From Pristiophorus japonicus (Eukaryota), in NCBI RefSeq assembly GCF_044704955.1, contig NC_091979.1:318432001-318496000 (forward strand): a stretch of 64,000 nucleotides of DNA, given 5' to 3'. The translations under genes were made by a program, and so were the position numbers. Position 1 is the first letter of the stretch, and each line of letters begins with the position of its first letter. The notes under the pieces were generated by a model. That model worked only from the letters and a program-made list of their open reading frames with translations, was not told where the DNA came from and did not search any database. Of this stretch, positions 1,782 to 64,000 are shown piece after piece.

Positions 1782-2729
1782 ATGGCAGGAGAGCTCGGTC
1801 GGGTGTTATGCTCCTCCTGTACCATGTGGGAACTCAGGGACGACACCAGTGTCCCTGACGACTATATTTGCAGGAAGTGTGTCCACCTCAAGCTCTTGAC
1901 GGTCCGCGTTGCGGAGTTGGAGCTGAGGGTGGATTCACTCTGGAGCATCCACGATGCTGAGAATGACGTGAGTATCACGTGTAGCGAGTTGGTCATACCG
2001 CAGGGAAAGGGTCCACAGCCAGATAGGGAATGGAAGACCAACAGGAAGAGCAGTGCAAGGAAGGTAGTGCAGGAGTCCCCTGTGGTCATCCCCCTGCAAA
2101 ACAGATACACTGCTTTGGGTACTGTTGAGGGGGATGACTCATCAGGGGAGGGCAGCAGCAGCCAAGTTCATGGCACCATGGCTGGCTCTGCTGCACAGGA
2201 GGGCAGGAAAAAGAGTGTGAGAGCAATAGTGATTGGGGATTCAATGGTGAGGGGAATAGATAGGCGTTTCTGCGGCCGCAACCGAGACTCCAGGATGGTA
2301 TGTTGCCTCCCTGGTGCAAGGGTCAAGGATGTCTCGGAGCGGGTGCAGGACATTCTAAAAAGGGAGGGAGAACAGCCAGTTGTCGTGGTGCACATTGATA
2401 CCAACGACATAGGTAAAAAAAGGGATGAGGTCCTACGAAACGAATTTAAGGAGCTAGGAGCTAAATTAAAAAGTAGGACCTCAAAAGTAGTAATCTCGGG
2501 ATTGCTACCAGTGCCACGTGATAGTCAGAGTAGGAATCGCAGGATAGCGCAGATGAATACGTGGCTTGAGCAGTGGTGCAACAGGGAGGGATTCAAATTC
2601 CTGGGGCATTGGAACCAGTTCTGGGGGAGGTGGGACCAGTACAAACCGGACGGTCTGCACCTGGGCAGGACCGGAACCAATGTCCTAGGGGGAGTGTTTG
2701 CTAGTGCTGTTGGGGAGGATTTAAACTGA
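1782..2729 (+). CDS. CR1 ORF1p: CxxC..CxxC zinc finger, coiled coil, SGNH/GDSL esterase domain
   Basis: CSSC...CRKC, heptad LLTVRVAELELRVDSL, esterase blocks IVIGDSMVR, CLPGA, HIDTND and DGLH. Open 315-aa frame. Confidence 0.9.
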   Translation: MAGELGRVLCSSCTMWELRDDTSVPDDYICRKCVHLKLLTVRVAELELRVDSLWSIHDAENDVSITCSELVIPQGKGPQPDREWKTNRKSSARKVVQESPVVIPLQNRYTALGTVEGDDSSGEGSSSQVHGTMAGSAAQEGRKKSVRAIVIGDSMVRGIDRRFCGRNRDSRMVCCLPGARVKDVSERVQDILKREGEQPVVVVHIDTNDIGKKRDEVLRNEFKELGAKLKSRTSKVVISGLLPVPRDSQSRNRRIAQMNTWLEQWCNREGFKFLGHWNQFWGRWDQYKPDGLHLGRTGTNVLGGVFASAVGEDLN

Positions 2730-2806
2730 TATGGCAGGGGGATGGGAACCAATGCAGGGAGACAGAGGGAAACAAAAAGGAGGCAAAAGCAAAAGACAGA
2801 AAGGAG

Positions 2807-4477
2807 ATGAGGAAAAGTGGAGGGCAGAGAAACCCAAGGCAAAGAACAAAAAGGGCCACTGTACAGCAAAATTCTAAAAGGACAAAGGGTGTTAAAAGAA
2901 CAAGCCTGAAGGCTTTGTGTCTTAATGCAAGGAGTATCCGCAATAAAGTGGATGAATTAACTGTGCAAATAGATGTTAACAAATATGATGTGATTGGGAT
3001 TACGGAGACGTGGCTCCAGGATGATCAGGGCTGGGAACTCAACATCCAGGGGTATTCAACATTCAGGAAAGATAGAATAAAAGGAAAAGGAGGTGGGGTA
3101 GCATTGCTGGTTAAGGAGCAAATTAAGGCAATAGTTCGGAAGGACATTAGCTTGGATGATGTGGAATCTATATGGGTAGAGCTGCAGAATACCAAAGGAC
3201 AAAAAACGTTAGTGGGAGTTGTGTACAGACCTCCAAACAGTAGTAGTGATGTTGGGGAGGGCATCAAACATGAAATTAGGGGTGCGTGCAATAAAGGTGC
3301 AGCAGTTATAATGGGTGACTTTAATATGCACATAGATTGGGTTAACCCGGTAGAGGAGGATTTCCTGGAGTGCATAAGGGATGGTTTTTTAGACCAATAT
3401 GTCGAGGAACCAACTAGGGGGGAGGCCATCTTAGACTGGGTGTTGTGTAATGAGAGAGGATTAATTAGCAATCTCGTTGTGCGAGGCCCCTTGGGGAAGA
3501 GTGACCATAATATGGTGGAATTCTGCATTAGGATGGAGAATGAAATAGTTAATTCAGAGACCATGGTCCAGAACTTAAAGAAGGGTAACTTTGAAGGTAT
3601 GAGTTGTGAATTGGCTAAGATAGATTGGCGAATGATACTGAAGGGGTTGACTGTGGATGGGCAATGGCAGACATTTAGAGACCGCATGGATGAACTACAA
3701 CAATTGTACATTCCTGTCTGTCGTAAAAATAAAAAAGGGAAGGTGGCTCAACCATGGCTATCAAGGGAAATCAGGGATAGCATTAAAGCCAAGGAAGTGG
3801 CATACAAATTGGCCAGAAATAGCAGCGAATCCGGGGACTGGGAGAAATTTAGAACTCAGCAGAGGAGGACAAAGGGTTTGATTAGGGCAGTGAAAATGGA
3901 GTACGAGAAGAAACTTGCAGGGAACATTAAGACGGATTGCAAAAGTTTCTATAGATATGTAAAGAGAAAAAGGTTAGTAAAGACAAACGTAGGTCCCCTG
4001 CAGTCAGAATCAGGGGAAGTCATAACGGGGAACAAAGAAATGGCGGACCAATTGAACAAGTACTTTGGTTCGGTATTCACTGAGGAGGACACAAACAACC
4101 TTCCGGATATAAAAGGGGTCGGAGGGTCTAGTAAGGAGGAGGAACTGAGGGAAATCCTTATTAGTCGGGAAATTGTGTTGGGGAAATTGATGGGATTGAA
4201 GGCCGATAAATCCCCAGGGCCTGATGGACTGCATCCCAGAGTACTTAAGGAGGTGGCCTTGGAAATAGTGGATGCATTGACAGTCATTTTCCAACATTCC
4301 ATTGACTCTGGATCAGTTCCTATGGAGTGGAGCGTAGCCAATGTAACCCCACTTTTTAAAAAAGGAGGGAGAGAGAAAACAGGGAATTACAGACCAGTCA
4401 GCCTGACATCGGTCACCCACTGTCACCCACTGCTTCAGACCTCCAACTCCCTCTCCTTGTTGTGCTTCTCCTTGTGA
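2807..4477 (+). pseudogene. CR1 ORF2 N-terminal part (APE endonuclease and linker), truncated at the start of RT
   Basis: LNARSI, GITETW, GGGVA, YRPP, GDFN, LD, SDH, KSPGPDG and NYRPVSL motifs. The last ~20 codons are read-through into unrelated sequence. Confidence 0.9.
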
Positions 4478-14803: not shown

Positions 14804-15617
14804 CATAGAAACATAGAAACATAGAAAATAGGTGCAAGAGTAGGCCATTCGGCCCTTCTAGCCTGCACCGCCATTCAATGAGTTCATGGCTGAACATTCA
14901 ACTTCAGTACCCCATTCCTGCTTTCTCGCCATACCCCTTGATCCCCCTAGTAGTAAGGACCTCATCTAACTCCTTTTTGAATATATTTAGTGAATTGGCC
15001 TCAACAACTTTCTGTGGTAGAGAATTCCACAGGTTCACCACTCTCTGGGTGAAGAAGTTCCTCCGCATCTCGGTCCTAAATGGCTTACCCCTTATCCTTA
15101 GACTGTGACCTCTGGTTCTGGACTTCCCCAACATTGGGAACATTCTTCCTGCATCTAACCTGTCTAACCCCGTCAGAATTTTATATGTTTCTATGAGGTC
15201 CCCTCTCATTCTTCTGAACTCCAGTGAATACAAGCCCAGTTGATCCAGTCTTTCTTGATAGGTCAGTCCCGCCATCCCAGGAATCAGTCTGGTGAACCTT
15301 CGCTGCACTCCCTCAATAGCAAGAATGTCCTTCCTCAGGTTAGGAGACCAAAACTGTACACAATACTCTAGGTGTGGCCTCACCAATGCCCTGTACAACT
15401 GTAGCAACACCTCCCTGCCCCTGTACTCAAATCCACTTGCTATGAAGGCCAACATGCCATTTGCTTTCTTAACCGCCTGCTGTACCTGCATGCCAACCTT
15501 CAATGACTGATGTACCATGACACCCAGGTCTCTTTGCACCTCCCCTTTTCCTAATCTGTCACCATTCAGATAATAGTCTGTCTCTCTGTTTTTACCACCA
15601 AAGTGGATAACCTCACA
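14804..15617 (-). mobile_element. 5'-truncated CR1 (family A) inserted antisense into the family B CR1
   Basis: Tail (CATAGAAA)n at 14804-14828. Near-identical to the reverse complement of 19640-20456. TCACATA at both junctions (14801-14807, 15613-15619). Confidence 0.92.
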
Positions 15618-18045: not shown

Positions 18046-20456
18046 GGATGGTTTTTTAGACCAATATGTCGAGGAACCAACTAGGGGGGAGGCCATCTTA
18101 GACTGGGTGTTATGTAATGAGTGAGGATTAATTAGCAATCTCGTTGTGCGAGGCCCCTTGGGGAAGAGTGACCATAATATGGTGGAATTCTGCATTAGGA
18201 TGGAGAATGAAACAGTTAATTCAGAGACCATGGTCCAGAACTTAAAGAAGGCTAACTTTGAAGGTATGAGGCGTGAATTGGCTGAGATGGATTGGCGAAT
18301 GATACTTAAGGGGTTGACTGTGGATGGGCAATGGCAGACATTTAGAGACCGCATGGATGAACTACAACAATTGTACATTCCTGTCTGGCATAAAAATAAA
18401 AAAGGGAAGGTGGCTCAACCGTGGCTATCAAGGAAAATCAGGGATAGTATTAAAGCCAAGGAAGTGGCATACAAATTGGCCAGAAATAGCAGCGAATCTG
18501 GGGACTGGGAGAAATTTAGAACTCAGCAGGGGGTTTGATTAGGGCAGGGAAAATGGAGTATGAGAAGAAACTTGCAGGGAACATTAAGACGGATTGCAAA
18601 AGTTTCTATAGATATGTAAAGAGAAAAAAGTTAGTAAAGACAAACGTAGGTCCCCTGCAGTCAGAATCAGGGGAAGTCATAACGGGGAACAAAGAAATGG
18701 CGGACCAATTGAACAAGTACTTTGGTTCGGTATTCACGAAGGAGGACACGAACAACCTTCCGGTTATAAAAGGGGTCGGGGGGTCTAGTAAGGAGGAGGA
18801 ACTGAGGGAAATCCTTATTAGTCGGGAAATTGTGTTGGGGAAATTGATGGGATTGAAGGCCGATAAATCCCCAGGGCCTGATGGACTGCATCCCAGAGTA
18901 CTTAAGGAGGTGGCCTTGGAAATAGTGGATGCATTGACAGTCATTTTCCAACATTCCATTGACTCTGGATCAGTTCCTATCGAGTGGAGGGTAGCCAATG
19001 TAACCCCACTTTTTAAAAAAGGAGGGAGAGAGAAAACAGGGAATTATAGACCGGTCAGCCTGACATCGGTAGTGGGTAAAATGATGGAATCAATTATTAA
19101 GGATGTCATAGCAGTGCATTTGGAAAGAGGTGACATGATAGGTGCAAGTCAGCATGGATTTGTGAAAGGGAAATCATGCTTGACAAATCTTCTGGAATTT
19201 TTTGAGGATGTTTCCAGTAGAGTGGACAAGGGAGAACCAGTTGATGTGGAATATTTGGACTTTCAGAAGGCATTCGACAAGGTCCCACACAAGAGATTGA
19301 TGTGCAAAGTTAGAGCACATGGGATTGGGGGTAGTGTGCTGACATGGATTGAGAACTGGTTGTCAGACAGGAAGCAAAGAGTAGGAGTAAATGGGTACTT
19401 TTCAGAATGGCAGGCAGTGACTAGTGGGGTACCGCAAGGTTTTGTGTTGGGGCCCCAGCTGTTTACACTGTACATTAATAATTTAAATGAGGGGATTAAA
19501 TGTAGTATCTCCAAATTTGCGGATGACACTAAGTTGGGTGGCAGTGTGAGCTGCGAGGAGGATACTGTGAGGCTGCAGAGCGACTTGGATAGGTTAGGTG
19601 AGTGGGCAAATGCATGGCAGATGAAGTATAATGTGGATAAATGTGAGGTTATCCACTTTGGTGGTAAAAACAGAGAGACAGACTATTATCTGAATGGTGA
19701 CAGATTAGGAAAAGGGGAGGTGCAAAGAGACCTGGGTGTCGTGGTACATCAGTCATTGAAGGTTGGCATGCAGGTAAAGCAGGCGGTTAAGAAAGCAAAT
19801 GGCATGTTGACCTTCATAGCAAGGGGATTTGAGTACAGGGGCAGGGAGGTGTTGCTACAGTTGTACAGGGCATTGGTGAGGCCACACCTGGAGTATTGTG
19901 TACAGTTTTGGTCTCCTAACCTGAGGAAGGACATTCTTGCTATTGAGGGAGTGCAGCGAAGGTTCACCAGACTGATTCCCGGGATGGCGGGACTGACCTA
20001 TCAAGAAAGACTGGATCAACTGGGCTTGTATTCACTGGAGTTCAGAAGAATGAGAGGGGACCTCATAGAAACATTTAAAATTCTGACGGGGTTAGACAGG
20101 TTAGATGCAGGAAGAATGTTCCCAATGTTGGGGAAGTCCAGAACCAGAGGTCACTGTCTAAGGATAAGGGGTAAGCCATTTAGGACCGAGATGCGGAGGA
20201 ACTTCTTCACCCAGAGAGTGGTGAACCTGTGGAATTCTCTACCACAGAAAGTTGTTGAGGCCAATTCACTAAATATATTCAAAAAGGAGTTAGATGAGGT
20301 CCTTACTACTAGGGGGATCAAGGGGTATGGCGAGAAAGCAGGAATGGGGTACTGAAGTTGAATGTTCAGCCATGAACTCATTGAATGGCGGTGCAGGCCA
20401 GAAGGGCCGAATGGCCTACTCCTGCACCTATTTTCTATGTTTCTATGTTTCTATGT
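18046..20456 (+). mobile_element. 5'-truncated CR1 (family A) inserted into the 49-bp minisatellite; RT region open at 18535-20355
   Basis: QHGF, DFQKAFD, GVPQG and FADD motifs, and a 3' tail TTTTCTATGTTTCTATGTTTCTATGT. A small deletion causes a frameshift near 18530. Confidence 0.93.
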
Positions 20457-45788: not shown

Positions 45789-47079
45789 GCAATTGTGCAA
45801 AAATAAATGATGGCTTCTGCTCAAATGCCTTTTCAAAATAGTACTTGCATTGATTGATCAACTCAGCTTTGAAAAGCAGGATTGCGAGGGGCTTTGCTGC
45901 CTGGATTTTTGTTCAGTTCAAATAGTTTTTTTCTGTAACACTGACCTATTTGGTGGTGTATGAAGGTAGAGTTTGGGGTAATTTCTAATGCTTTCTTCAA
46001 CAGCTCCACAGCTTTTTCCACATCTCCTCTTCTGTAAAATTTTGCTGCATAACGAGTTACATATGGAAGATCAGGGGACTTCTGCAATGCTTGTTCAACT
46101 AATTCGTGTTCTTCCACCTTTTGATTGAACTCTTGTAGTTTTAGAGCCAACATCACCATGGCTACAGAGTCATCTGGATCAAGTCCCCACACGTCGCAAC
46201 TGCTTCACTGATTGGCTGCGGTCACCACTCTCTGGGGTACGAGAAAACGTGTCCACACGAAACAGAACAGTCGCATAGCCAACGTTCCATTCAGTGTCAT
46301 CAGGATCATCCTCCAGAGTCTTCTCAAAACATTCCTTTGCCTCTTCATAGTATTGACTAGGAGAATTCAACAGTGACCAACCCTTCTCCCCGTATACTTC
46401 TGGTCTCAGTGCTGTATACCGAGTAAATTGTTTACAGATCATCTCCAGCTTGTCGAGGTAGGACTGGGCCTCTGTCAGTTGGCCCATGTGATAATATACC
46501 CAGGCATAGTTTCCATAGGTGATGATGCTTCTTCTTTCAAATTCATGTTCATGATTCTCCCTCAGAATCTTTTCAGCTTCCTTTAAGTTTTGAATTGCCC
46601 CTTTGAATTGCCTTGCAGACAGTTTACAAATGCGAGGTGGTTGTCAGACCTGGCCTGATAATTCACACCAGCCTGTATTAAATCTTGTAATCTATACTTC
46701 ATGTCGTCCAAGTCAATGCTGTCTCTCTGTGGGCCCCACGTGAAGTGACATTGAAGCTGGCTGAGTTTTGCTTTCAAGCAATCATTCAGTGTGTTGCTGT
46801 TGGAGAACAAAATAATCAAAGCCCATCTTATGTGTATCTAACTTACATTTTTAGCTCATATATAATCAACATAGCAATGCTGGTAAAGTCAGAATAGCAG
46901 AACAGATGAGCAGCTCAGTGCACATGGGCCCAGAACACTTCCCGACAGCCTCACTGCCTGGCATCCCTCAGTTCGGGGGAAACCCATTGGAATCCTGTAA
47001 TGGTCCCGGAGGCAATAACAAATGAACAATTGGCTCATGAGTGTCAGCAGAAATCCATGATCATCCATTAGTCTGATCA

Positions 47080-47440: not shown

Positions 47441-47455
47441 ACACTGGGGAAAGCG

Positions 47456-47868
47456 GGCTCGGGGAATGGGAGACTGGGGAATGGGGGCTCGGGGAGAGGG
47501 TGACTGGGAAATGGGGACTCGGGGAGAGGGAAACTGGGGAATGGGGGCTCGGGGAGAGGGAGACTGGGGAATGGGGGCTCGGGGAGAGGGAGACTGGGGA
47601 ATGGGAGCTCGGGGAGAGGGAGACTGGGGAATGGGGGCTCGGGGAAAGGGAGACTGAGGAATGGGGGCTCGGGGAGAGGGAGACTGGGGAATGGGGGCTC
47701 GGGGAGAGGGAGATTGGGGAATGGGGGCTCGGGGAGAGGGAGACTGGGGAATGGGGGCTCGGGGAGAGGGAGACTGGGGAATGGGGGCTCGGGGAGAGGG
47801 AGACTGGGGAATGGGGGCTCGGGGAGAGGGGGAATGGGGGCTCGGGAGAGGGAGACTGGGGAATGGGT
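47456..47868 (+). repeat. 30-bp G-rich minisatellite (GGGGAGAGGGAGACTGGGGAATGGGGGCTC), ~14 copies
   Basis: Direct reading; four G-tracts per unit. Confidence 0.95.
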
Positions 47869-48025
47869 CAGGGGGGATCATGGTGAGGCCAGGCGGGAGG
47901 TAGAAGAGGCCAGGTTGAGTGTAATTTATTCTGTGGTGGCCTGGAGGAGCTGGACTGATCCCTGGGCTCCAGACAAGGTCACTGGGCCTCTCCAGCCCTG
48001 GCCTTCTCTCACACACCACAGCAAC

Positions 48026-48115
48026 TCCCTTCAGCCCCCTCCCAGCAGATCCCTTCAGCCCCCTCCCAGCAGATCCCTTCAGTCCCCTCGCAGCAGATCC
48101 CTTGAACCCCTCAGG
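48026..48115 (+). repeat. 24-bp C-rich tandem repeat, ~4 copies
   Basis: TCCCTTCAGCCCCCTCCCAGCAGA repeated. Confidence 0.8.
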
Positions 48116-48230
48116 AGATCGAGCTGCCGGGGGTGGGCAGAGCTTTCGGGGGGTTGGGAGTCGGGAAGTTGGGTTTGGAGGGTGGTGGGAGAACTCGGGA
48201 CCGGGAGAGGCGGGGATTATCTTTAACCTA

Positions 48231-48426
48231 CCCGGCAACTGATGATGCAGCTCGCAGTATTTGTCTGATTGGATAGTTCAATGTTTGGAAAGTTTATTTC
48301 GGCACCAACAAAAACTCTCCCCGTGTCTTTTCTACCCGGAGCCTATTGACTCACAGCCTGTTTTTATTGTAATTGGAGACAAATATACCCTCGAACCAAT
48401 CAGTTCGGAGGAGTCTGAGTGTAAAA
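48231..48426 (+). promoter_or_regulatory. MHC-type promoter: X box, X2-like site, Y box, AP-1 site, CCAAT box and TATA-like element
   Basis: X CCCGGCAACTGATG 48231-48244; TGATGCA 48243-48249; 20-nt spacer; Y CTGATTGG 48265-48272; TGACTCA 48347-48353; CCAATCAG 48396-48403; TGTAAAA 48420-48426. Confidence 0.75.
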
Positions 48427-48460
48427 CACTCTGCACTGGGCAAAGCGCACGAACAGATAG

Positions 48461-51400
48461 CACAGAGAGACAGTCCCAGAGACACAGTATCAGCACAGGG
48501 CACAGAGAGACAGTCCCAGAGACACAGTATCAGCACAGGGCACAGAGAGACAGTCCCAGAGACACAGTATCAGCACAGGGCACAGAGAGACAGTCCCAGA
48601 GACACAGTATCAGCACAGGGCACAGAGAGACAGTCCCAGAGACACAGTATCAGCACAGGGCACAGAGACAGTCCCGGAGACACAGTATCAGCACAGGGCA
48701 CAGAGAGACAGTCCCAGAGACACAGTATCAGCACAGGGCACCGAGAGACAGTCCCGGAGACACAGTATCAGCACAGGGCACAGAGAGACAGTCCCAGAGA
48801 GAGAGTATCAGCACAGGGCACAGAGACAGTCCCAGAGACACAATATCAGCACAGGGCACAGAGAGACAGTCCCAGAGACACAGTATCAGCACAGGGCACA
48901 GAGAGACAGTCCCAGAGACACAGTATCAGCACAGGGCACAGAGACAGTCCCAGAGACACAGTATCAGCACAGGGCACAGAGAGACAGTCCCAGAGACACA
49001 GTATCAGCACAGGGCACAGAGAGACAGTCCCAAAGACACAGTATCAGCACAGGGCACAGAGAGACAGTCCCGGAGACACAGTATCAGCACAGGGCACAGA
49101 GAGACAGTCCCAGAGACACAGTATCAGCACAGGGCACCGAGAGACAGTCCCGGAGACACAGTATCAGCACAGGGCACAGAGAGACAGTCCCAGAGACACA
49201 GTATCAGCACAGGGCACCGAGAGACAGTCCCGGAGACACAGTATCAGCACAGGGCACAGAGAGACAGTCCCAGAGAGAGAGTATCAGCACAGGGCACAGA
49301 GACAGTCCCAGAGACACAATATCAGCACAGGGCACAGAGAGACAGTCCCAGAGACACAGTATCAGCACAGGGCACAGAGAGACAGTCCCAGAGACACAGT
49401 ATCAGCACAGAGCACAGAGAGACAGTCCCAGAGACACAGTATCAGCACAGGGCACAGAGTGACAGTCCCAGAGACACAGTATCAGCACAGGGCACAGAGA
49501 CAGTCCCAGGGACATAGTATCAGCACAGGGCACAGAGAGACAGTCCCAGAGACACAGTATCAGCACAGGGCACAGAGACAGTCCCAGGGACACAGTATCA
49601 GCACAGGCACAGAGAGTCAGTCCCAGAGACACAGTATCAGCATAGGGCACAGAGAAACAGTCCCGGAGACACAGTATCAGCATAGGGCACAGAGAGACAG
49701 TCCCGGAGACACAGTACCAGCACAGGGCACAGAGACAGTCCCAGAGACACAGTATCAGCACAGGGCACAGAGAGACAATCCCAGAGACACAGTATCAGCA
49801 CAGGGCATAGAGACAGTCCCAGAGACACAGTATCAGCACAGGGCACAGAGACAGTCCCAGAGACACAGTATCAGCACAGGGCAAAGAGAGACAGTCCCAG
49901 AGACACAGTATCAGCACAGGGCACCGAGAGACAGTCCCGGAGACACAGTATCAGCACAGGGCACAGAGAGACAGTCCCAGAGACAGAGTATCAGCACAGG
50001 GCACAGAGAGACAGTCCCAGAGACAGAGTATCAGCACAGGGCACAGAGACAGTCCTAGAGACACAATATCAGCACAGGGCACAGAGAGACAGTCTCAGAG
50101 ACACAGTATCAGCACAGGGCACAGAGAGACAGTCTCAGAGACACAGTATCAGCACAGGGCACAGAGAGACAGTCTCAGAGACACAGTATCAGCACAGGGC
50201 ACAGAGAGACAGTCCCAGAGACACAGTATCAGCACAGGGCACAGAGAGACAGTCCCGGAGACACAGTATCAGCACAGGCACAGAGAGTCAGTCCCAGAGA
50301 CACAGTATCAGCACAGGGCACAGAGAGACAATCCCAGAGACACAGTATCAGCACAGGGCACAGAGACAGTCCCAGAGACACAGTATCAGCACAGGGCACA
50401 GAGAGACAGTCCCAGAGACACAGTATCAGCACAGGGCACAGAGAGACAGTCCCAGAGACACTGTATCAGCACAGGGCACAGAGACAGTCCCAGAGACACA
50501 ATATCAGCACAGGGCACAGAGAGACAATCCCAGAGACACAGTATCAGCACAGGGCACAGAGAGACAGTCCCAGAGACACAGTGTCAGCACAGAGCACAGA
50601 GAGACAGTCCCAGAGACACAGTATCAGCACAGGGCACAGAGAGACAGTCCCAGAGACACAGTATCAGCACAGGGCACAGAGACAGTCCCAGGGACATAGT
50701 ATCAGCACAGGGCACAGAGAGACAGTCCCGGAGACACAGTATCAGCACAGGCACAGAGATTCAGTCCCAGAGACACAGTATCAGCATAGGGCACAGAGAG
50801 ACAGTCCCAGAGACACAGTATCAGCACAGGGCACAGAGACAGTCCCAGAGACACAGTATCAGCACAGGGCACAGAGAGACAGTCCCAGAGACACAGTATC
50901 AGCACAGGGCACAGAGAGACAGTCCCAGAGACACAGTATCAGCACAGGGCACAGAGAGACAGTCCCAGAGACACAGTATCAGCACAGGGCACAGAGAGAC
51001 AGTCCCAGAGACACAGTATCAGCACAGGGCACCGAGAGACAGTCCCGGAGACACAGTATCAGCACAGGGCAGAGAGAGACAGTCCCAGAGACACAGTATC
51101 AGCACAGGGCACAGAGAGACAGTCCCAGAGACACAGTATCAGCACAGGGCACCGAGAGACAGTCCCGGAGACACAGTATCAGCACAGGGCACAGAGAGAC
51201 AGTCCCAGAGAGAGAGTATCAGCACAGGGCACAGAGACAGTCCCAGAGACACAATATCAGCACAGGGCACAGAGAGACAGTCCCAGAGACACAGTATCAG
51301 CACAGGGCACAGAGAGACAGTCCCAGAGACACAGTATCAGCACAGGGCACAGAGTGACAGTCCCAGAGACACAGTATCAGCACAGGGCACAGAGACAGTC

Positions 51401-53361
51401 CCAGGGACATAGTATCAGCACAGGGCACAGAGAGACAGTCCCGGAGACACAGTATCAGCACAGGCACAGAGAGTCAGTCCCAGAGACACAGTATCAGCAT
51501 AGGGCACAGAGAGACAGTCCCGGAGACACAGTACCAGCACAGGGCACAGAGACAGTCCCAGAGACACAGTATCGACACAGGGCACAGAGAGACAATCCCA
51601 GAGACACAGTATCAGCACAGGGCATAGAGACAGTCCCAGAGACACAGTATCAGCACAGGGCACAGAGAGACAGTCCCAGAGACAGAGTATCAGCACAGGG
51701 CACAGAGACAGTCCCAGAGACACAGTATCAGCACAGGGCACAGAGAGACAGTCCCAGAGACACAGTATCAGCACAGGGCACAGAGAGACAGTCCCAGAGA
51801 CACAGTATCAGCACAGGGCACAGAGAGACAGTCCCAGAGACACAGTATCAGCACAGGGCACAGAGAGACAGTCCCAGAGACACAGTATTAGCACAGGGCA
51901 CAGAGAGACAGTCCCGGAGACACAGTATCAGCACAGGCACAGAGAGTCAGTCCCAGAGACACAGTATCAGCATAGGGCACAGAGAGACAGTCCCGGAGAC
52001 ACAGTATCAGCATAGGGCACAGAGAGACAGTCCCAGAGACACAGTATCAGCACAGGGCACAGAGAGACAATCCCGGAGACACAGTATCAGCACAGGGCAT
52101 AGAGACAGTCCCAGAGACACAGTATCAGCACAGGGCACAGAGACAGTCCCAGAGACACAGTATCAGCACAGGGCACAGAGAGACAGTCCAAGAGACACAG
52201 TATCAGCACAGGCACAGAGATTCAGTCCCAGAGACACAGTATCAGCACTGGGCACAGAGAGACAGTCCCAGAGACACAGTATCAGCACAGGGCACAGAGA
52301 GACAGTCCCAGAGACACAGTATCAGCACAGGGCACAGAGAGACAGTCCCAGAGACACAGTATCAGCACAGGGCACAGAGAGACAGTCCCAGAGAAACTGT
52401 ATCAGCACAGGGCACAGAGACAGTCCCAGAGACACAATATCAGCACAGGGCACAGAGAGACAATCCCAGAGACACAGTATCAGCACAGGGCACAGAGAGA
52501 CAGTCCCAGAGACACAGTATCAGCACAGAGCACAGAGAGACAGTCCCAGAGACACAGTATCAGCACAGGGCACAGAGAGACAGTCCCAGAGACACAGTAT
52601 CAGCACAGGGCACAGAGACAGTCCCAGAGACACAGTATCAGCACAGGGCACAGAGAGACAGTCCCAGAGACACAGTATCAGCACAGGGCACAGAGACAGT
52701 CCCAGAGACACAGTATCAGCACAGGGCACAGAGACAGTCCCAGAGACACAGTATCAGCACAGAGCACAGAGAGACAGTCCCAGAGACACAGTATCAGCAC
52801 AGAGCACAGAGAGACAGTCCCAGAGACATAGTATCAGCACAGGGCACAGAGAGACAGTCCCGGAGACACAGTATCAGCACAGGCACAGAGATTCAGTCCC
52901 AGAGACACAGTATCAGCATAGGGCACAGAGAGACAGTCCCGGAGACACAGTATCAGCACAGGGCACAGAGAGACAGTCCCGGAGACACAGTACCAGCACA
53001 GGGCACAGAGACAGTCCCAGAGACACAGTATCGACACAGGGCACAGAGAGACAGTCCCAGAGACACAGTATCAGCACAGGGCATAGAGACAGTCCCAGAG
53101 ACACAGTATCAGCACAGGACACAGAGACAGTCCCAGAGACACAGTATCAGCACAGGGCACAGAGAGACAGTCCAAGAGACACAGTATCAGCACAGGGCAC
53201 AGAGAGACAGTCCCAGAGACACAGTATCAGCACTGGGCACAGAGAGACAGTCCCAGAGACACAGTATCAGCACTGGGCACAGAGAGACAGTCCCAGAGAC
53301 ACAGTATCAGCACAGGGCACAGAGAGACAGTCCCAGAGACACAGTATCGGCACTGGGCACA
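48461..53361 (+). repeat. 40-bp minisatellite (CACAGAGAGACAGTCCCAGAGACACAGTATCAGCACAGGG; 38-bp variants), ~120-125 copies
   Basis: Direct reading; only 3 T per 40 nt on the + strand. Confidence 0.97.
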
Positions 53362-53458
53362 GGAATCACACGGTCTGAATTGGGCGCAGCTCACGGACGG
53401 TCTCTCGGAAAAGGATTGCCTGCAAACTGCTCATCCCAGCCTGTCGAGGGAAGTAACA

Positions 53459-54526
53459 ATGTTTGGACTGACCGTGCTGGCCCTTCTGTGTGGAGAGGTG
53501 TGTGCAGGCTCTCACTCCCTGCGGTACATGCACACGGCTATCACTCCGCTCCCGGGCATTGCTGAGTTCACCGATGTGGGTTATGTGGATGACCAGCAGT
53601 TTATTTACTATGACAGTGTGAGCCGGCAGTACACCCCGCGGCAGCGGTGGATCAGGGAGAGCGAGGGCGCCGAGTACTGGGAGCGCTACACACAGATCCT
53701 GCGGGGCAAGGAGCAGGTGATGAAAGGCAACATTCAGACCGTCTTAACCCGCACCAACCAGACCGGCGGGATCCACACGCTGCAGAGGTTGTGCGGCTGT
53801 GAGCTGCGGGATGACGGCACCACCAGCGGCTTCTGGCAGTACGGCTGGGACGGGAAGGACCTGATCAGCTTCGACAAGGATCGCCTGGTGTGGGTCACCC
53901 CGGTACCGTGGGGAGAGATCACCAAGAACAAGTGGGACCAGGACAGGGCCGAAATGCAGCAGGACAAAAGTTACCTGGAGCAGGAGTGCATCGAGTGGCT
54001 GAAGAAATACCTGAAGGCTGGAGAGAGAGAACTGGGAGCTGTTGCTCCTCAAGTGTTTCCTTCTGTGGACAAGGCGTCAAATATTAAAGCCCCCCAACTC
54101 TCCTGTCTCCTCACAGGATTTTACCCTCGCGAAATCCAAGTGACCCTCCTGAGAAATGGCGAGCCAATCAGGGACACGGAATCCACGGGCATCCTGCCCA
54201 ACCACGATGGCACCTACCAGCTCACGACATGGGCTCAGATCGAGCCCGCGGATGGAGCCACCTATTCCTGTCAGTATGAGCAGAGCGGCCAAGCAGGAGG
54301 GAAGACCCGAGACTGGGACGGGACGTTCCGAGTGACTCCAGGATCGCCAGAGGGAACAAATAGGGGTTTGATTGTTGGAATTGTGATTGCTGCCGTCGCC
54401 CTGATTGCTCTTGTGATCGGTGCGGTTGTGTGGAAGAGGAGAGGAGGAGAGGAGACATCTGGTTACAGCCCAGCGAACCCTGCTGAACGAGGAGAATTAT
54501 CCCCAAACTCAGCAGCCCAGTCCTGA
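53459..54526 (+). CDS. MHC class I heavy chain, single-exon, classical (UAA-like) peptide-binding residues
   Basis: Signal peptide; GSHSLRY; alpha1 N-glycosylation NQT; alpha2 CGC...YLEQECIEWL; Ig-C1 alpha3 LSCLLTGFYP...NHDGTYQL...YSC; TM LIVGIVIAAVALIALVIGAVVW; KRR stop-transfer; cytoplasmic GYSPA. Uninterrupted 355 codons, A at -3. Confidence 0.96.
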   Translation: MFGLTVLALLCGEVCAGSHSLRYMHTAITPLPGIAEFTDVGYVDDQQFIYYDSVSRQYTPRQRWIRESEGAEYWERYTQILRGKEQVMKGNIQTVLTRTNQTGGIHTLQRLCGCELRDDGTTSGFWQYGWDGKDLISFDKDRLVWVTPVPWGEITKNKWDQDRAEMQQDKSYLEQECIEWLKKYLKAGERELGAVAPQVFPSVDKASNIKAPQLSCLLTGFYPREIQVTLLRNGEPIRDTESTGILPNHDGTYQLTTWAQIEPADGATYSCQYEQSGQAGGKTRDWDGTFRVTPGSPEGTNRGLIVGIVIAAVALIALVIGAVVWKRRGGEETSGYSPANPAERGELSPNSAAQS

Positions 54527-54769
54527 GGCTGATCCCGAAGTGAAGTTCACTGGGACTAGAATCTGGACTTGCTGTGTCGCAAGGAGGGTTCATTCAGAAG
54601 CAATCCACGATTCTGCATCTTCATTTCGTTTGATTGTCACTGGCTGCTGCCAGTGTTAATAGTAATCGGTAATGTATCTATCATTGAGTGGGTTTGGGGA
54701 TATTTTCTTTTTGGTGATTGGATAGAAATCTCCAGTTGGGTCTTTTGGTGTTTAATGTAAATGAGATGT

Positions 54770-54840
54770 GTCGATTTCGGCACGGGCTGGATGGCCAAAT
54801 GGTCGTCTTCCGTGCTGTAACCATTCTATGATTCTATGTA
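54770..54840 (+). mobile_element. Short CR1/SINE-type 3' tail downstream of the class I ORF
   Basis: GGCCAAATGGTCGTCTTCCGTGCTGTAACCATTCTATGATTCTATG. Confidence 0.6.
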
Positions 54841-54847
54841 TGGTGGC

Positions 54848-55508
54848 CGGGGGAGAGGGAGACTGGGAATGGGGGCTGGGGGAGAGAGGGAGACTGGGAA
54901 TGGGGTCTTGGGGAGACGGAGACTGGGAATGGGGGCTGGGGGAGAGAGGGAGACTGGGAATGGGGTCTTGGGGAGAGAGAGACTGGGGAATGGGGGCTCA
55001 GGGAGAGGGAGACTGGGGAATGGGGGCTTGGGGAGAGAGAGACTGGGTAATGGGGGCTCAGGGAGAGGGAGACTTGGGAATGGGGCCTCGGGGAGAGAGA
55101 GACTGGGGAATGGGGGCTTGGGGAGCGGGAGACTGGGGAATGGGGGCTTGGGGAGACGGAGACTTGGGAATGGGGCCTCGGGGAGAGAGAGACTGGGGAA
55201 TGGGGGCTCGGGGCTCGGGAGACTGGGGAATGGGGGCTTGGGGAGAGGGAGACTGGGGAATGGGGGCTTGGGGAGAGAGGGAGACTGGGGAATGGGGGCT
55301 CTGGGAGAAGGAGACTGGGGAATGGGGGCTTGGGGAGAGAGGGAGACTGGGGAATGGGGGCTCTGGGAGAGGGAGACTGGGGAATGGGGGCTTGGGGAGA
55401 GAGGGAGACTGGGGAATGGGGGCTCTGGGAGAGGGAGACTGGGGAATGGGGGCTCGGGGAGAGAGAGACTGGGGAATGGGTGCTCGGGGAGAGGGAGACT
55501 GGGGAATG
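54848..55508 (+). repeat. 30/31-bp G-rich minisatellite, ~22 copies, same family and orientation as 47456-47868
   Basis: GGGAGAGGGAGACTGGGGAATGGGGGCTY units. Confidence 0.95.
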
Positions 55509-55844
55509 GCGTGGGTGTGGGTTCTAGTATTTCCCCCAGAGCCGGGAGCAGCAGCAACGTGGTGAGTGGGAGTGACACTGAGAGAGGAGCAGCCAGTAAA
55601 GAGGTGAGTGAAACCTGGGGACCTTACTGTGGGTAAATAGTGAAAGATTATTTCCAGTGGTGGGCGAATGGGGAACTAGGGAACGGAAACCAAAGATTCT
55701 AAAACCTAAAGGGAATGTGATAAATATTTGAAAAGGAAGAATGTTATAAGATCTGGGGGTGGGGTGGGCGGGGGGGAATGGGATTACAGAAGAGAGTGCG
55801 AGCTCCGAGGCCGAATGATCTCCTCCTGTGCAGTCATTTCTATA

Positions 55845-57370
55845 AATGCATTCCCCACTCTGCTCAATGTGCTGAAGTTGCAGCCCTGGTGACAGCAATC
55901 CAAATGACTTATGACATACCTGTTAATGCCTGGCCAGATAGTGCCTATGCGATTAACACTTTGTTACCTTTATCGCTGTATGCTCGGAACACGATCAGCC
56001 CCTGTTTATGTTGGTAAGAAGTCTCACTCACCATCTTTGAACTTACACACCCGGAGCAACTCACAAGCAGATCATGCTGCTACAGATGCCACCGTTAACC
56101 TCTGGCAAGCTCCTACCCCTCCCTTAAGGTCTGTCCCGAGTATTCAAGGTGGGGACATCGATCTCCCGGTCTCTAGGCCAGTTATCTTCCCTATGCGGTT
56201 GTTATTGCATGGCATCGGGATGGATGTCCGTTGTCTCAGCCCACTCCATGGGCTGTGGACACACAATTGGCTCCAGATCAGTCTGGGAAATCTGCCCTCC
56301 TGTTAATGTATGGGCCCTGCTTGCGGTGGCTATCATCTGATCTCCCAGTTGTCTGTGTTCCCCCATCCATGGCACCCAAAATGTTTGATCTCCTCCATTG
56401 ACACCCGGTGGGAGGACACTATTCAGCCGATGCAACTGTTCAGAAACTACACAAATTTGCATGGCATCATAATTGTGTTACTGACGTCACTCATAGAGTG
56501 AATGTTGCCTGCCCTGTTTACAGCAAAACCCAAGTGCCACATGAAGCGAGCACTGTTGGGTAGTCCCCCTTCTCCCGAGGGGGCCAAGGTCCCACCTTCA
56601 AATTGACTTTATAGGCCCTTGCCTACAGGGCCTTCTGGGTTGTGGTATTGTCTGGTTGTAGTTGATACGTTTACAAAATGGATGGAGTCTTTTCCATGTA
56701 AAACAAACACAGTATTGACAGCAGCTCGCCTATTATTGGGTGAGGTGAGCTGCAGGCAGGGAGTGCCAATTCAGGCTGATACCGCACAAAGTTTTACCGA
56801 GCTGCAACGGACAATGAGTATGTTGCATAAACTTCATATCTCCCACCGTCCACAATCATCTGGAATGGTGGAAAGAGGAAATCGAATTCTGAAAATTATG
56901 TTAAACAAATTTGGTGCAGATCACCCCACCAAATGGTCTAGCATGCTGTCAATGTGCCAGATAGTTATTAAATCCACCCCGCATAGCACAACGGGTATTT
57001 CACCCTACCAAGCTATGACTGGGCGACTAATGCGAATGCCAGCCCATCTGTTAACCCCTTCAGTTACACCCTTAGTACAGGGAACTGCCAACCAAAAATG
57101 GCTTGAAATGTAGCCAGACAGACAGGGAAGTCAAGAAGCCAGGCATAGAAACACTTCGATAAGCAGTTCCGACCTTTTGAACATCAAGTGGGAGATATCG
57201 TAATGCTACTAAACTATGGGAAGCAACAACATTGCTTCGAACCAAGGTGGAATGGCCCCATTCCCGATTATTGACGGGGTCAGTCCTTCGGTCTATCTGT
57301 TGCAATTCCCTGGGGAAAAAGGGGAGGAACAAGTGGGGTAAATAGTACCATATCAATCAGTTGAAAACCG
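55845..57370 (+). mobile_element. Degenerate retroviral-type pol (RNase H plus integrase)
   Basis: HSAQCAEVAAL..DSAYA (RNase H); LQIDFIGPLP..LVVVDTFTKW..HRPQSSGMVERGNRILK..STPHSTTGISPY (integrase). Possible PPT AAGGAGGGGAA plus LTR start TGTTAG at ~58343-58361. Confidence 0.75.
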
Positions 57371-60861: not shown

Positions 60862-63012
60862 ATATGACAGGGGGATGGGATGGGAATCTATGCAGGGAGA
60901 CAGAGGGGAATAAAATGGAGACAGAAGCAAAAGATAGAAAGGAGAATGGTAAAAGTGGAGGACAGAGAAACCCAAGGCAAAAAACAAAAAGGGCCACTTT
61001 ACAACAGAATTCAAAAGGGTCAAAGTATGTTAAAAGACAAGCCACAATGTGAGGAGTATTCAGAATAAGGTGGACGAATTAACTGCACAGATAGCTGTTA
61101 ATGTATACGATGTGATTGGCATCATGGAGACATGGCTCCAGGATGATCAAGGCTGGGAACTCAACATCCAAAGGTATTCAGCATTTAGGAAGGATAGACG
61201 GAAAGGAAAAGGAGGTGGGCTGGCGTTGCTGGTTAAAGAGGACATTAATGCAATTGTAAGGAAGGACATTAGCTTGAATTATGTGGAATCGGTATGGGTG
61301 GAGCTACGGAATACCAAAGGACAGAAAACACAAGTAGGAGTTGTGTACATGCCACCAAACAGTAGCAGTGAGGTTGGGGACAGCATCAAACAAGAAATAA
61401 GGGATGTGTGCAATAAAGGTACAGCAGTTATCATGGGCGACTTTAATCTACATATTGATTGGCCTAACCTAACTGGTAGCAATGCAGTGGAGGAGGATTT
61501 CCTGGAGTGTATTGGGGATGGTTTTCGAGACCAATATGTTGAGGAACCAACCAGAGAGCTGGCTATCCTCGACTGGATGATGTGTAATGAGAAGGGACTA
61601 ATTAGAAATCTTGTTGTGCGAAGCCCCTTGGGGAAGAGTGACCATAATATGGTAGAATTCAGTATTAAGATGGAGAGTGACAAAGTTAATTCAGAAACTA
61701 GGGTGCTGAACATAAGAAAAGAATTGGCTAGATTAGACTGGCAAATGATAGTTAAAGGGTTGACAGTGGATAGGCAATGGCAAAACACAAAGATCATATG
61801 GACGAACTTCAACAATTGTATATCCCTGTCTGGAGTAAAAATAAAACAGGGAAGGTGGCTCAACCGTGGCTAACAAGGGAAATTAAGGATAGTGTTAAAT
61901 TCAATGAAGAGGCATACAAATTAGCCAGAAAAAGTAGCAAGCCAGAGGACTGGGAGAAATTTAGAATACAGCAGAGGAGGACAAAGGGTTTAATTAAGAG
62001 GGGGGAAATAGAGTACGAGAGGAAGCTTGCCGGAAACATAAAAACTGACTGTAAAAGCTTCTATAGATATATGAAGAGAAAAAGATTAGTGAAGACAAAC
62101 GTAGGTCCCTTGCAGTCGGATTCAGGTGAATTTATAATGGGGAACAAGAAATGGCAGACCAATTGAACAAGTACTTTGGTTCTGTCTTCGCAAAGGAAGA
62201 CAAAAATAACCTTCCGGATGTACTAGGGGACCGAAGGTCGAGTGAGAAGGAGGAACTGGAGGATATCCTTATTAGGCGGGAAATTGTATTCGGGAAATTG
62301 ATGGGATTGAAGGCCGATAAATCCCCAGGGCCTGATAGTCTGCATCCCAGAGTACTTAATGAAATGGCCCTAGAAATAGTGGATGCATTGGTGATAATTT
62401 TCCAACAGTCTATCGATGCTGGATCAGTTCCTATGGACTGGAGGGTTGCTAATGTAACACCACTTTTTAAAAAAGGAGGGAGAGAGAAAATGGGTAATTA
62501 TAGACTGGTTAGCCTGACATCAGTAGTGGGGAAAATGTTGGAATCAATCATTAAGGATGAAATAGCAGTGTATTTGGAAAGCAGTGATAGGATCGGTCCA
62601 AATCAGCATGGATTTATGAAAGGGAAATCATGCTTGACAAATCTTCTGGAATTTATTGAAGATGTAACCAATAGAGTGGACAGGGGAGAATCAGTGGATG
62701 TGATGTATTTGGACTTTCAAAAGGCTTTTGACAAGGTCCCACACAAGAGATTGGTGTGCAAAATCAAAGCACATGGCATTGGGGGTAATGTACTGACGTG
62801 GATAGAGAACTGGTTGGCAGACAGGAGGCAGAGAGTCGGGATTAACAGGTCCTTTTCAGAATGGCAGGCAGTGACTAGTGGAGTGCTGCAGGGCTCAGTG
62901 CTGGGACCCCAGCTATTTACAACATATATTAATGATTTAGATGATGGAATTGAATGTAACATCTCCAAGTTTGCAGATGACACTAAACTGGGTGGAGGTG
63001 TGAGCTGTGAGG
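60862..63012 (+). mobile_element. CR1 (family A subtype) ORF2, frameshifted, interrupted at 63012
   Basis: APE and RT motifs in ORFs 61049, 61777 and 62151, up to FADDTKLGGGVSCE. Confidence 0.92.
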
Positions 63013-64000
63013 AACATAAGAACATAAGAACTTAAGAATTAGGAACAGGAGTAGGCCATCTAGCCCCTCGAGCCTGCTCTGCCATTCAACAAGATCATAG
63101 CTGATCTGGCCGTGGACTCAGCTCCACTTACCTGCCCGCTCCCCTTAACCTTTAATTACCTTATTGGTTAAAAATCTATCTATCTGTGATTTGAATACAT
63201 TCAATGAGCTAGTCTCAACTGCTTCCTTGGGCAGAGAATTCCACAGATTCACAACCCTCTGGGAGAAGAAATTCCTTCTCAACTTGGTTTTAAATTGGCT
63301 CCCCCGTATTTTGAGGCTGTGCCCCCTAGTTCTAGTCTCCCCGACCAGTGGAAACAACCTCTCTGCCTCTATCTTTTCTATCCCTTTCATTATTTTAAAT
63401 GTTTCTTTAAGATCACCCCTCATCCTTCTGAACTCAGAGTAAAGACCCAGTTTACTCAATCTATCATCATAAGGTAACCCTCTCATCTCTGGAATCAGCC
63501 AAGTGAAACGTCTCTGTACCATCTCCAAAGCTAGTATATCCTTCCTTAAGTAAGGTGACCAAAATTGCACGCAATACTCCAGGTGCGGACTCACTAATAC
63601 CCTATACAGTTGCAGCAGGACCTCCCTGCTTTTGTACTCCATCCCTCTCGCAATGAAGGCCAACATTCCATTCGCCTTCATGATTACCTGCTGCACCTGC
63701 AAACTAACTTTTTGGGATTCATGCACAAGGACCCCCAGGTCCCTCTGCACCGCAGCATGTTGCAATTTCTCCCCATTTAAATAAGATTCCCTTTTACTGT
63801 TTTTTTTTCCAAGGTGGATGACCTCACATTTTCCGACATTGTATTCCATCTGCCAAACCTTAGCCCATTCGCTTAACCTATCTAAAGCTCTTTGCAGCCT
63901 CTCTGTGTCCTCTACACAACCCGCTTTCCCACTAATCGTTGTGTCATCTGCAAATTTTGTTACACTACACTCTGTCCCCTCTTCCAGGTCAACTATGTAT
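63013..64000 (-). mobile_element. CR1 (family B) inserted antisense, running off the window end
   Basis: Tail (CATAAGAA)n at 63013-63040; near-identical to the reverse complement of 15800-16955. Confidence 0.92.

Follow-up and report, generated by a model that had tools for sequence, protein, structure and literature searches.

We report here that an intronless MHC class I gene of Pristiophorus japonicus lies behind an X-Y promoter module which, judged by homology, is the class I promoter of its own parent gene, inherited by descent. Its most probable origin, at roughly 0.6, is that a CR1-like enzyme primed at a LINE tail copied a transcript that likely began upstream of this promoter, and that the cassette was later amplified to nine copies. 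The window, i.e., the whole stretch of 64,000 nucleotides that was analyzed, is C3:318,432,001-318,496,000 of a 5.9-Gb genome (C numbers denote contigs). The first-pass annotation of the window had proposed that the introns were removed at the native locus, or that the gene is a DNA-level duplicate of such a locus, on the ground that a dispersed retrocopy would not carry its promoter. That ground fails, as 5'-extended transcripts yield retrocopies that do carry it, according to the relevant part of PMC5470649.

The intronless gene and its promoter

The coding region is on the forward strand at 53459..54526 and, as had been annotated, belongs to an intronless class I gene; it encodes an intact 355-aa heavy chain, to which a UniRef entry under the name Pristiophorus japonicus is identical. 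Compared with the spliced gene at C19:54.66 Mb, all seven introns, including the intron just after the stop codon, are precisely missing (7/7 junctions), leaving six coding junctions and the 3'UTR junction cleanly spliced. The 3'UTR (54527..54778, forward strand) is derived from the parent's last exon, to which it is 84% identical when the tail described below is included. As the absence of introns alone is compatible with both retroposition and in-place loss, the ends of the cassette decide between them. Nine copies are found on C3 (316.6-319.3 Mb), one of them frameshifted; the eight intact copies, all from one assembly, show 0-9 differences per 1068 nt. Database models of 380 and 385 aa have N-terminal extensions that we treated as artefacts; one of these goes back to IFIT intron DNA, spliced from position 46877.

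The promoter elements are on the forward strand as well. The X box (48231-48244) has one difference in 14 positions from that at C19:56.68 Mb, and the Y box (48265-48272), 20 nt downstream, is identical in four of the six spliced class I promoters that were compared. TGACTCA (48347-48353), CCAAT (48396-48400), and a TATA-like motif (48420-48426) follow. The X box, the 20-nt gap, the Y box, CCAAT, and the TATA-like motif are all where the first-pass annotation had placed them. At least one loose X-core plus ATTGG motif occurred in 19 of 200 Markov-resampled windows; as the loose motif alone is thus weak, it is the homology to spliced promoters that establishes the module. The region 48227-48450 matches the DNA directly 5' of the leader exon in five spliced class I genes (76-85% identity, E 6e-62 to 2e-33) and, partially, in a sixth, and the 20-nt X-to-Y gap is common to the window copy and all six spliced promoters. 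The module is thus a class I promoter by descent, and the comparison with paralogs that the annotation had proposed finds it conserved. The inherited proximal promoter (48227..48447, forward strand), which contains all five elements, is clipped 5' of X and has lost the S box and the ISRE. For a class I promoter and leader at C19:56.61-56.68 Mb, the nearest alpha1 exon found is 65 kb away; either the intron is very long or the promoter is an orphan.

The X box is 5.2 kb from the start codon, and a 40-bp tandem repeat of 124 copies (48460..53362, forward strand) lies between them. The repeat has expanded from a unit in the parental 5'UTR, and the spliced gene at C19:49.77 Mb has a few copies of a related unit in its own 5'UTR; the 4.9-kb gap between the module and the ATG is thus accounted for by an expanded 5'UTR repeat. 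The distance from the TATA-like motif to the ATG ranges from 990 to 5652 nt across the nine copies and is 5040 nt in the window copy, compared with about 100 nt in the parent. This distance fits the view that the module is a passenger, the copy being silent or its transcription starting beside the ATG or further upstream, with 4.9 kb of repeat intervening; so does the lack of significant constraint on the module in the retrogene branch (2/42 private changes vs 16/171 in the rest of the promoter, p=0.27). We consider this possible but doubtful, since the distance is only 990-1294 nt in six copies, no ATG intervenes between the TATA-like motif and the start codon in the window or in any of the eight copies checked (8/8), and the ORF is intact with pN/pS below 1.

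In the case of the coding region, no breaks were observed at 17% divergence from the parent. Nine independent dispersed copies contain 27 breaks in 3300 nt, from which 8.7 would be expected in the ORF (P about 2e-4, the ages being unequal); these nine were picked by hand from a set of 35 matches that includes duplicate loci and members of one chimeric family (P=0.002 for the whole set). Pairwise dN/dS between the retrogene and the parent is 0.46, and dS in alpha1 is 0.88. On the retrogene branch, pN/pS is 0.47 over 145 codons (p=0.038), a value as low as which is also seen in two of seven dead copies (0.46 and 0.48). We regard these as modest signs of selection on an intact ORF. Class Ia molecules anchor peptides with eight residues, Y7, Y59, R84, T143, K146, W147, Y159, and Y171, all of which are present in both the retrogene and the parent. 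Two protein trees, of 33 and 31 sequences, place the retrogene together with the parent and Squalus acanthias AAN77874, with moderate support (86/87 and 83/85, respectively) and similar branch lengths; this placement, together with the alpha1 dS, points either to an old event or to a donor allele that was itself divergent.

When the window region 53507-54041 was compared with PDB entries, the best match was nurse shark class I, and two of the three next-best matches were MR1 chains, aided by a common ERYTQ-L-RG stretch. The ligand lysine of MR1 is unmatched in the window ORF. Contigs of sequencing runs of unrecorded kind and strand contain pieces of the gene and have no bearing on its transcription: X1 and X3 pieces are about 99% identical to the ORF, the X1 run also has a 252-nt piece over 48150-48401 with three differences, the X3 run has a short piece of C19-type block A (see below), and the X2 run, which has another organism label, has two near-identical ORF pieces.

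The two ends of the cassette and its origin

The homology to the parent ends at a 60-nt sequence (54779..54838, forward strand), which is the 3' end of the cassette, and the parent itself continues beyond it. This sequence is the 3' tail of a LINE and consists of a stem-loop and 8-nt repeats. The genome contains 399 occurrences of its last 29 nt, and at 20 of 30 sampled places an RT ORF ends within 140 nt upstream of the tail. The retrogene thus ends in the stem-loop-bearing 3' end of an RT-encoding LINE, the feature expected of CR1-type mobilization; the tail hairpin has a z of -4.7 in the retrogene and of -0.58, which is not significant, in the parent's present copy. We take the LINE to be CR1-like from its GDSL ORF1, RT ORF2, and tail. 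CR1-like LINE copies with a GDSL-esterase ORF1 and an RT ORF2 are also present in the window at 1782-4477, 14904-15518, 18553-20355, and 61124-63849, and their examined tails belong to other subfamilies than the tail in the class I 3'UTR.

The same 3' end recurs elsewhere in the genome. Of 437 candidate matches to the parent's last exon, 40 were scored, and 30 of these are dispersed. Twenty-six of the 30 end at positions 284-314, the tail end being at about 310, three extend beyond it, and one stops earlier; one of the 26 is 6 kb from a downstream piece, and the two may be a single interrupted copy. No A-tract was found at any of 18 ends inspected, and the first polyA-like hexamer of the parent is at 351, about 40 nt past the tail. 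We infer that reverse transcription was primed at the internal LINE tail of the parent mRNA, and the retrogene itself ends at this site without poly(A).

Tails are shared in a comparable way by stringent LINEs and SINEs, as described in parts of PMC3747384 and PMC4176376 for the shark HE1 SINE and HER1 LINE and for the ZfL2 stem-loop: there, as here, a 3' stem-loop and short repeats are common with an RT-encoding LINE. In the present case, however, the passenger is a protein-coding mRNA, and the tail lies inside the last exon of the parent. Tail recognition was demonstrated, in the relevant part of PMC4176376, for zebrafish L2 elements and not for this element, and CR1 specificity is cited as limiting retrocopies in a passage of PMC5470649 (after Suh 2015).

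On the 5' side, the homology to spliced promoters starts abruptly 4 nt before X in the window copy, and the identical break was observed in the six further C3 copies examined. The DNA beyond the break consists of a G-rich linker (48105..48226, forward strand) and block A (47868..48104, forward strand). Block A is class I upstream DNA that has 80-83% identity, in the same orientation, to five class I-associated places; in four spliced genes, it is found 2.7-15 kb upstream of the promoter, and it adjoins a fifth class I place. It was considered as a common repeat, and this was rejected, as its matches, in a search that can skip common words, are confined to these five places, the C3 copies, the unplaced contig C3585, and four weak short matches. 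No homologue of the linker was found between block A and X in five spliced loci, nor anywhere beyond the C3 copies and C3585.

A plausible course of events begins with the insertion of the 60 nt of LINE sequence in the parent's 3'UTR, by which the parent mRNA would have become a substrate of a tail-specific RT. A rare transcript may then have started from block A or further upstream, and its processing may have brought block A near X, perhaps by way of an acceptor-like AG located 5 nt before the break in five of six parents. A transcript processed to this AG would carry the promoter and lose the S box and the ISRE. The AG scores at the low end of real acceptors; in a post hoc test for which 4 of 19 training sites were false, the probability of its occurring by chance was 1.4-4.8% in five parents and 23% in the sixth. 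Block A extends past a parental GTGAGT donor and thus was not spliced there. No upstream-started or spliced parental transcript was seen.

Retrogenes that inherit a promoter are known, Pgk2 being an example, and retrocopies of 5'-extended transcripts make up about 3% of human and mouse retrocopies, according to the same part of PMC5470649. The shark gene is like them in being intronless, relocated, and intact in its ORF, with upstream DNA of the parent. It differs in that it ends at a CR1-like tail and not at poly(A), its promoter is clipped between S and X, and it is an immune gene that has been amplified ninefold.

The 5' end may instead have been finished on DNA, i.e., the tail-primed cDNA may have entered the parent locus by strand invasion, been extended along the promoter to just past X, switched to block A as a template, and only then been joined to the target. 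Such a route dispenses with an upstream transcript. Normal mRNA lacks the promoter, block A looks unspliced, and the linker could be filler from template jumps. We consider this route a genuine but rather unlikely alternative, as it requires two template switches, it has left no direct sign, and the break falls 5 nt after the acceptor-like AG in most of the parents.

The site of insertion also bears on the origin. The cassette is flanked by two arms of a 30-bp G-rich minisatellite, the left at 47443..47867, which is flush with block A, and the right at 54850..55509, with the same unit and orientation. The right arm is followed by a right flank (55505..55845) that is common to sites without a class I cassette: in 11 of 13 ten-kb stretches without a class I gene, it was found again, its first 196 nt being 95% identical and the remainder 81-86%. 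The exact minisatellite dimer occurs only on C3 at 311.7-319.5 Mb and on C3585 (40 matches). At seven of eight cassette-free sites examined, the order is ISREs, TATA, the first exon of an oppositely oriented gene, the minisatellite, and then the right flank. We take the gene beside the array to be IFIT from its neighboring coding frame and exon pattern. In the window, a frameshifted fragment of an IFIT coding exon (46024..46829, reverse strand) is 92% identical to IFIT unit L122, the frame of which matches IFIT1 at E 9e-55, and its exon 1 and ISRE promoter are missing. As the IFIT promoter is gone from the cassette-bearing copies and IFIT intron DNA abuts the array, the left side has been rearranged. 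No target-site duplication is readable, both junctions being inside the minisatellite and the left side being rearranged. The retrogene was thus inserted among foreign flanks in an IFIT cluster on C3, away from the parent on C19; loss of the neighboring IFIT promoter and duplication of the unit as DNA would have followed the insertion. This cluster (C3:316.6-319.5 Mb) is a large tandem array of IFIT genes that have double-ISRE promoters, and the class I copies are interspersed among them.

Removal of the introns at the native class I locus by cDNA recombination, with the locus then moved to C3 as DNA, would predict native flanks, and contiguous native flanks are not observed: the 3' end at the LINE tail is followed by IFIT-cluster DNA, and the 5' homology breaks just before X. 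In-place intron loss, as originally annotated, is thus unsupported. Such an origin would be in keeping with two class I upstream blocks kept in order and orientation, with deletions in the region, and with later copies that are DNA duplicates; however, the S box and the ISRE are absent, as are the 2.5-15 kb that separate block A from X, the 3' end is exactly at the LINE tail as in 26 of the 30 dispersed matches and not at a native flank, and the copies scored on C19 and C11, a lower bound, include none that is both full-length and intronless. We therefore regard it as very improbable. The annotated DNA-level duplication is retained for the later amplification to nine copies, and otherwise does not hold.

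Other class I retrocopies were also observed. One at C17:3.8977-3.8988 Mb (L216) is 5'-truncated and has an inverted 5' piece, and none of four other long copies carries the promoter (0/4). In one dispersed family (L012-L017, L019, L020, L078-L084, L086-L090, L092, L093), a piece of spliced class I sequence, which in most members covers about nt 620-1220 of the parent mRNA and in some is 5'-shorter, is fused at nearly one 3' point to a common unrelated sequence; this structure is that of a class I fragment taken up and dispersed by a different element.

Loss of the S box and the ISRE

In five of six spliced promoters, a CAACCT S box is located exactly 16 nt 5' of X, and an ISRE-like element 44-45 nt 5' of X. 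Both of these class I-type elements are absent from the window copy, as compared with the six spliced promoters, and the absence of an S box at the 16-nt spacing agrees with the first-pass annotation. The GGACC that it had reported about 10 nt further upstream does exist (48198-48202), but lies 12 nt beyond the 16-nt S position, i.e., 28 nt before X. It is followed by G and is part of the non-homologous linker; a GGACCT-type (CIITA-type) S box was not found at 16 nt.

The primer sequences in PMC4374748 give, for mouse H2-K, an ISRE, TAACCT, 16 nt, and X, and, for H2-Eb, a GGACCT S box with X, X2, and Y boxes that closely resemble the shark sequence. In the part of that study used here, the Y box of the NLRC5-type SXY module is located 20-22 nt downstream of X, and X boxes are interchangeable for NLRC5, the S box being decisive. 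The shark module, with its spacing of 20 nt, is like the mammalian SXY of both types (NLRC5 at H2-K and CIITA at H2-Eb) in X, the gap, and Y. Spliced shark genes are like H2-K in having an S box at 16 nt and an ISRE, so that their X, X2, and Y are H2-Eb-like but their S box is H2-K-like; the retrogene, having no S box at 16 nt, is unlike both H2-K and H2-Eb. The earlier description of the module as class II-like is thus correct for the resemblance of X, X2, and Y to H2-Eb, but it does not imply control by CIITA, as the CAACCT S box makes the spliced shark promoters class I-type despite their class II-looking X-Y, and X boxes are interchangeable.

As the S box is decisive for NLRC5 in mammals and both the S box and the ISRE have been lost, the retrogene promoter is predicted, by analogy with mammalian data only, to have lost its NLRC5 and interferon input. 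Basal transcription by RFX, CREB, and NF-Y would be kept while induction by NLRC5 and interferon is lost, and the product would be a low-level, nearly monomorphic class I molecule. The retrogene promoter can be viewed as a natural S-box/ISRE deletion allele of the shark class I promoter; together with the intact parent, it makes it possible to ask by reporter assay whether the NLRC5/S-box logic was already established in sharks.

Genomic setting

The spliced class I genes are located on C19 at 49.8-57.2 Mb, around a class II alpha match at 55.7 Mb, and also on C11; we infer that C19 contains the MHC. A proteasome-subunit search for the MHC location gave no C19 row among 48 matches and did not locate TAP or PSMB8, and a class II beta search gave no match; both are uninformative for C19. 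The retrogene on C3 thus lacks the MHC linkage that is characteristic of class Ia genes. According to the part of PMC10751288 considered here, class I or class II genes outside the MHC were not found in elasmobranchs. The retrogene protein belongs with known elasmobranch class I lineages, in that it groups with the Squalus acanthias protein and the spliced C19 gene, but, unlike the genes of that report, it is intronless, multicopy, and on a contig other than that of the spliced class I and class II alpha sequences. As its copies are on C3 and not on C19, it is an exception to the reported MHC-only location of elasmobranch class I genes. The C11 cluster (148.35-148.58 Mb) consists of spliced class I genes with S-X-Y promoters in which the Y box is altered, and is a second possible exception. 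In the wallaby, MHC genes have likewise been displaced from the MHC, with one intronless MHC copy; unlike the shark gene, that copy belongs to class II and is a pseudogene, having both a stop codon and a putative poly(A) tail.

A literature search, largely at the record level, brought up neither a description of an intronless class I gene in sharks nor one of this LINE tail. A 2026 preprint (10.64898/2026.06.26.734816) gives a total of 14,081 retrocopies for cartilaginous fish and connects these with CR1/Tx1, and the portion available makes no mention of the MHC.

The present case offers a concrete route by which protein-coding mRNAs may be copied by a tail-specific LINE, and the dozens of dead copies provide internal controls. 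A wider scenario is tentative: a LINE tail in a class I 3'UTR may have made the mRNA a SINE-like passenger of a tail-specific CR1 enzyme, and one copy with X-Y but with no S box or ISRE may have survived since about the dogfish-lineage split and given rise to a monomorphic class I family outside the MHC that has a classical-type groove, is expressed independently of NLRC5 and interferon, and is tuned in its output by a 5'UTR repeat of 1-5.6 kb.

Two minor observations came from the same searches. A second match to the class II alpha family is located at C6:35351065-35351286, away from C19. The proteasome-subunit search gave many long intron-free matches, most of them lacking the 5' part, and retrocopies of other genes are thus also common in this genome.
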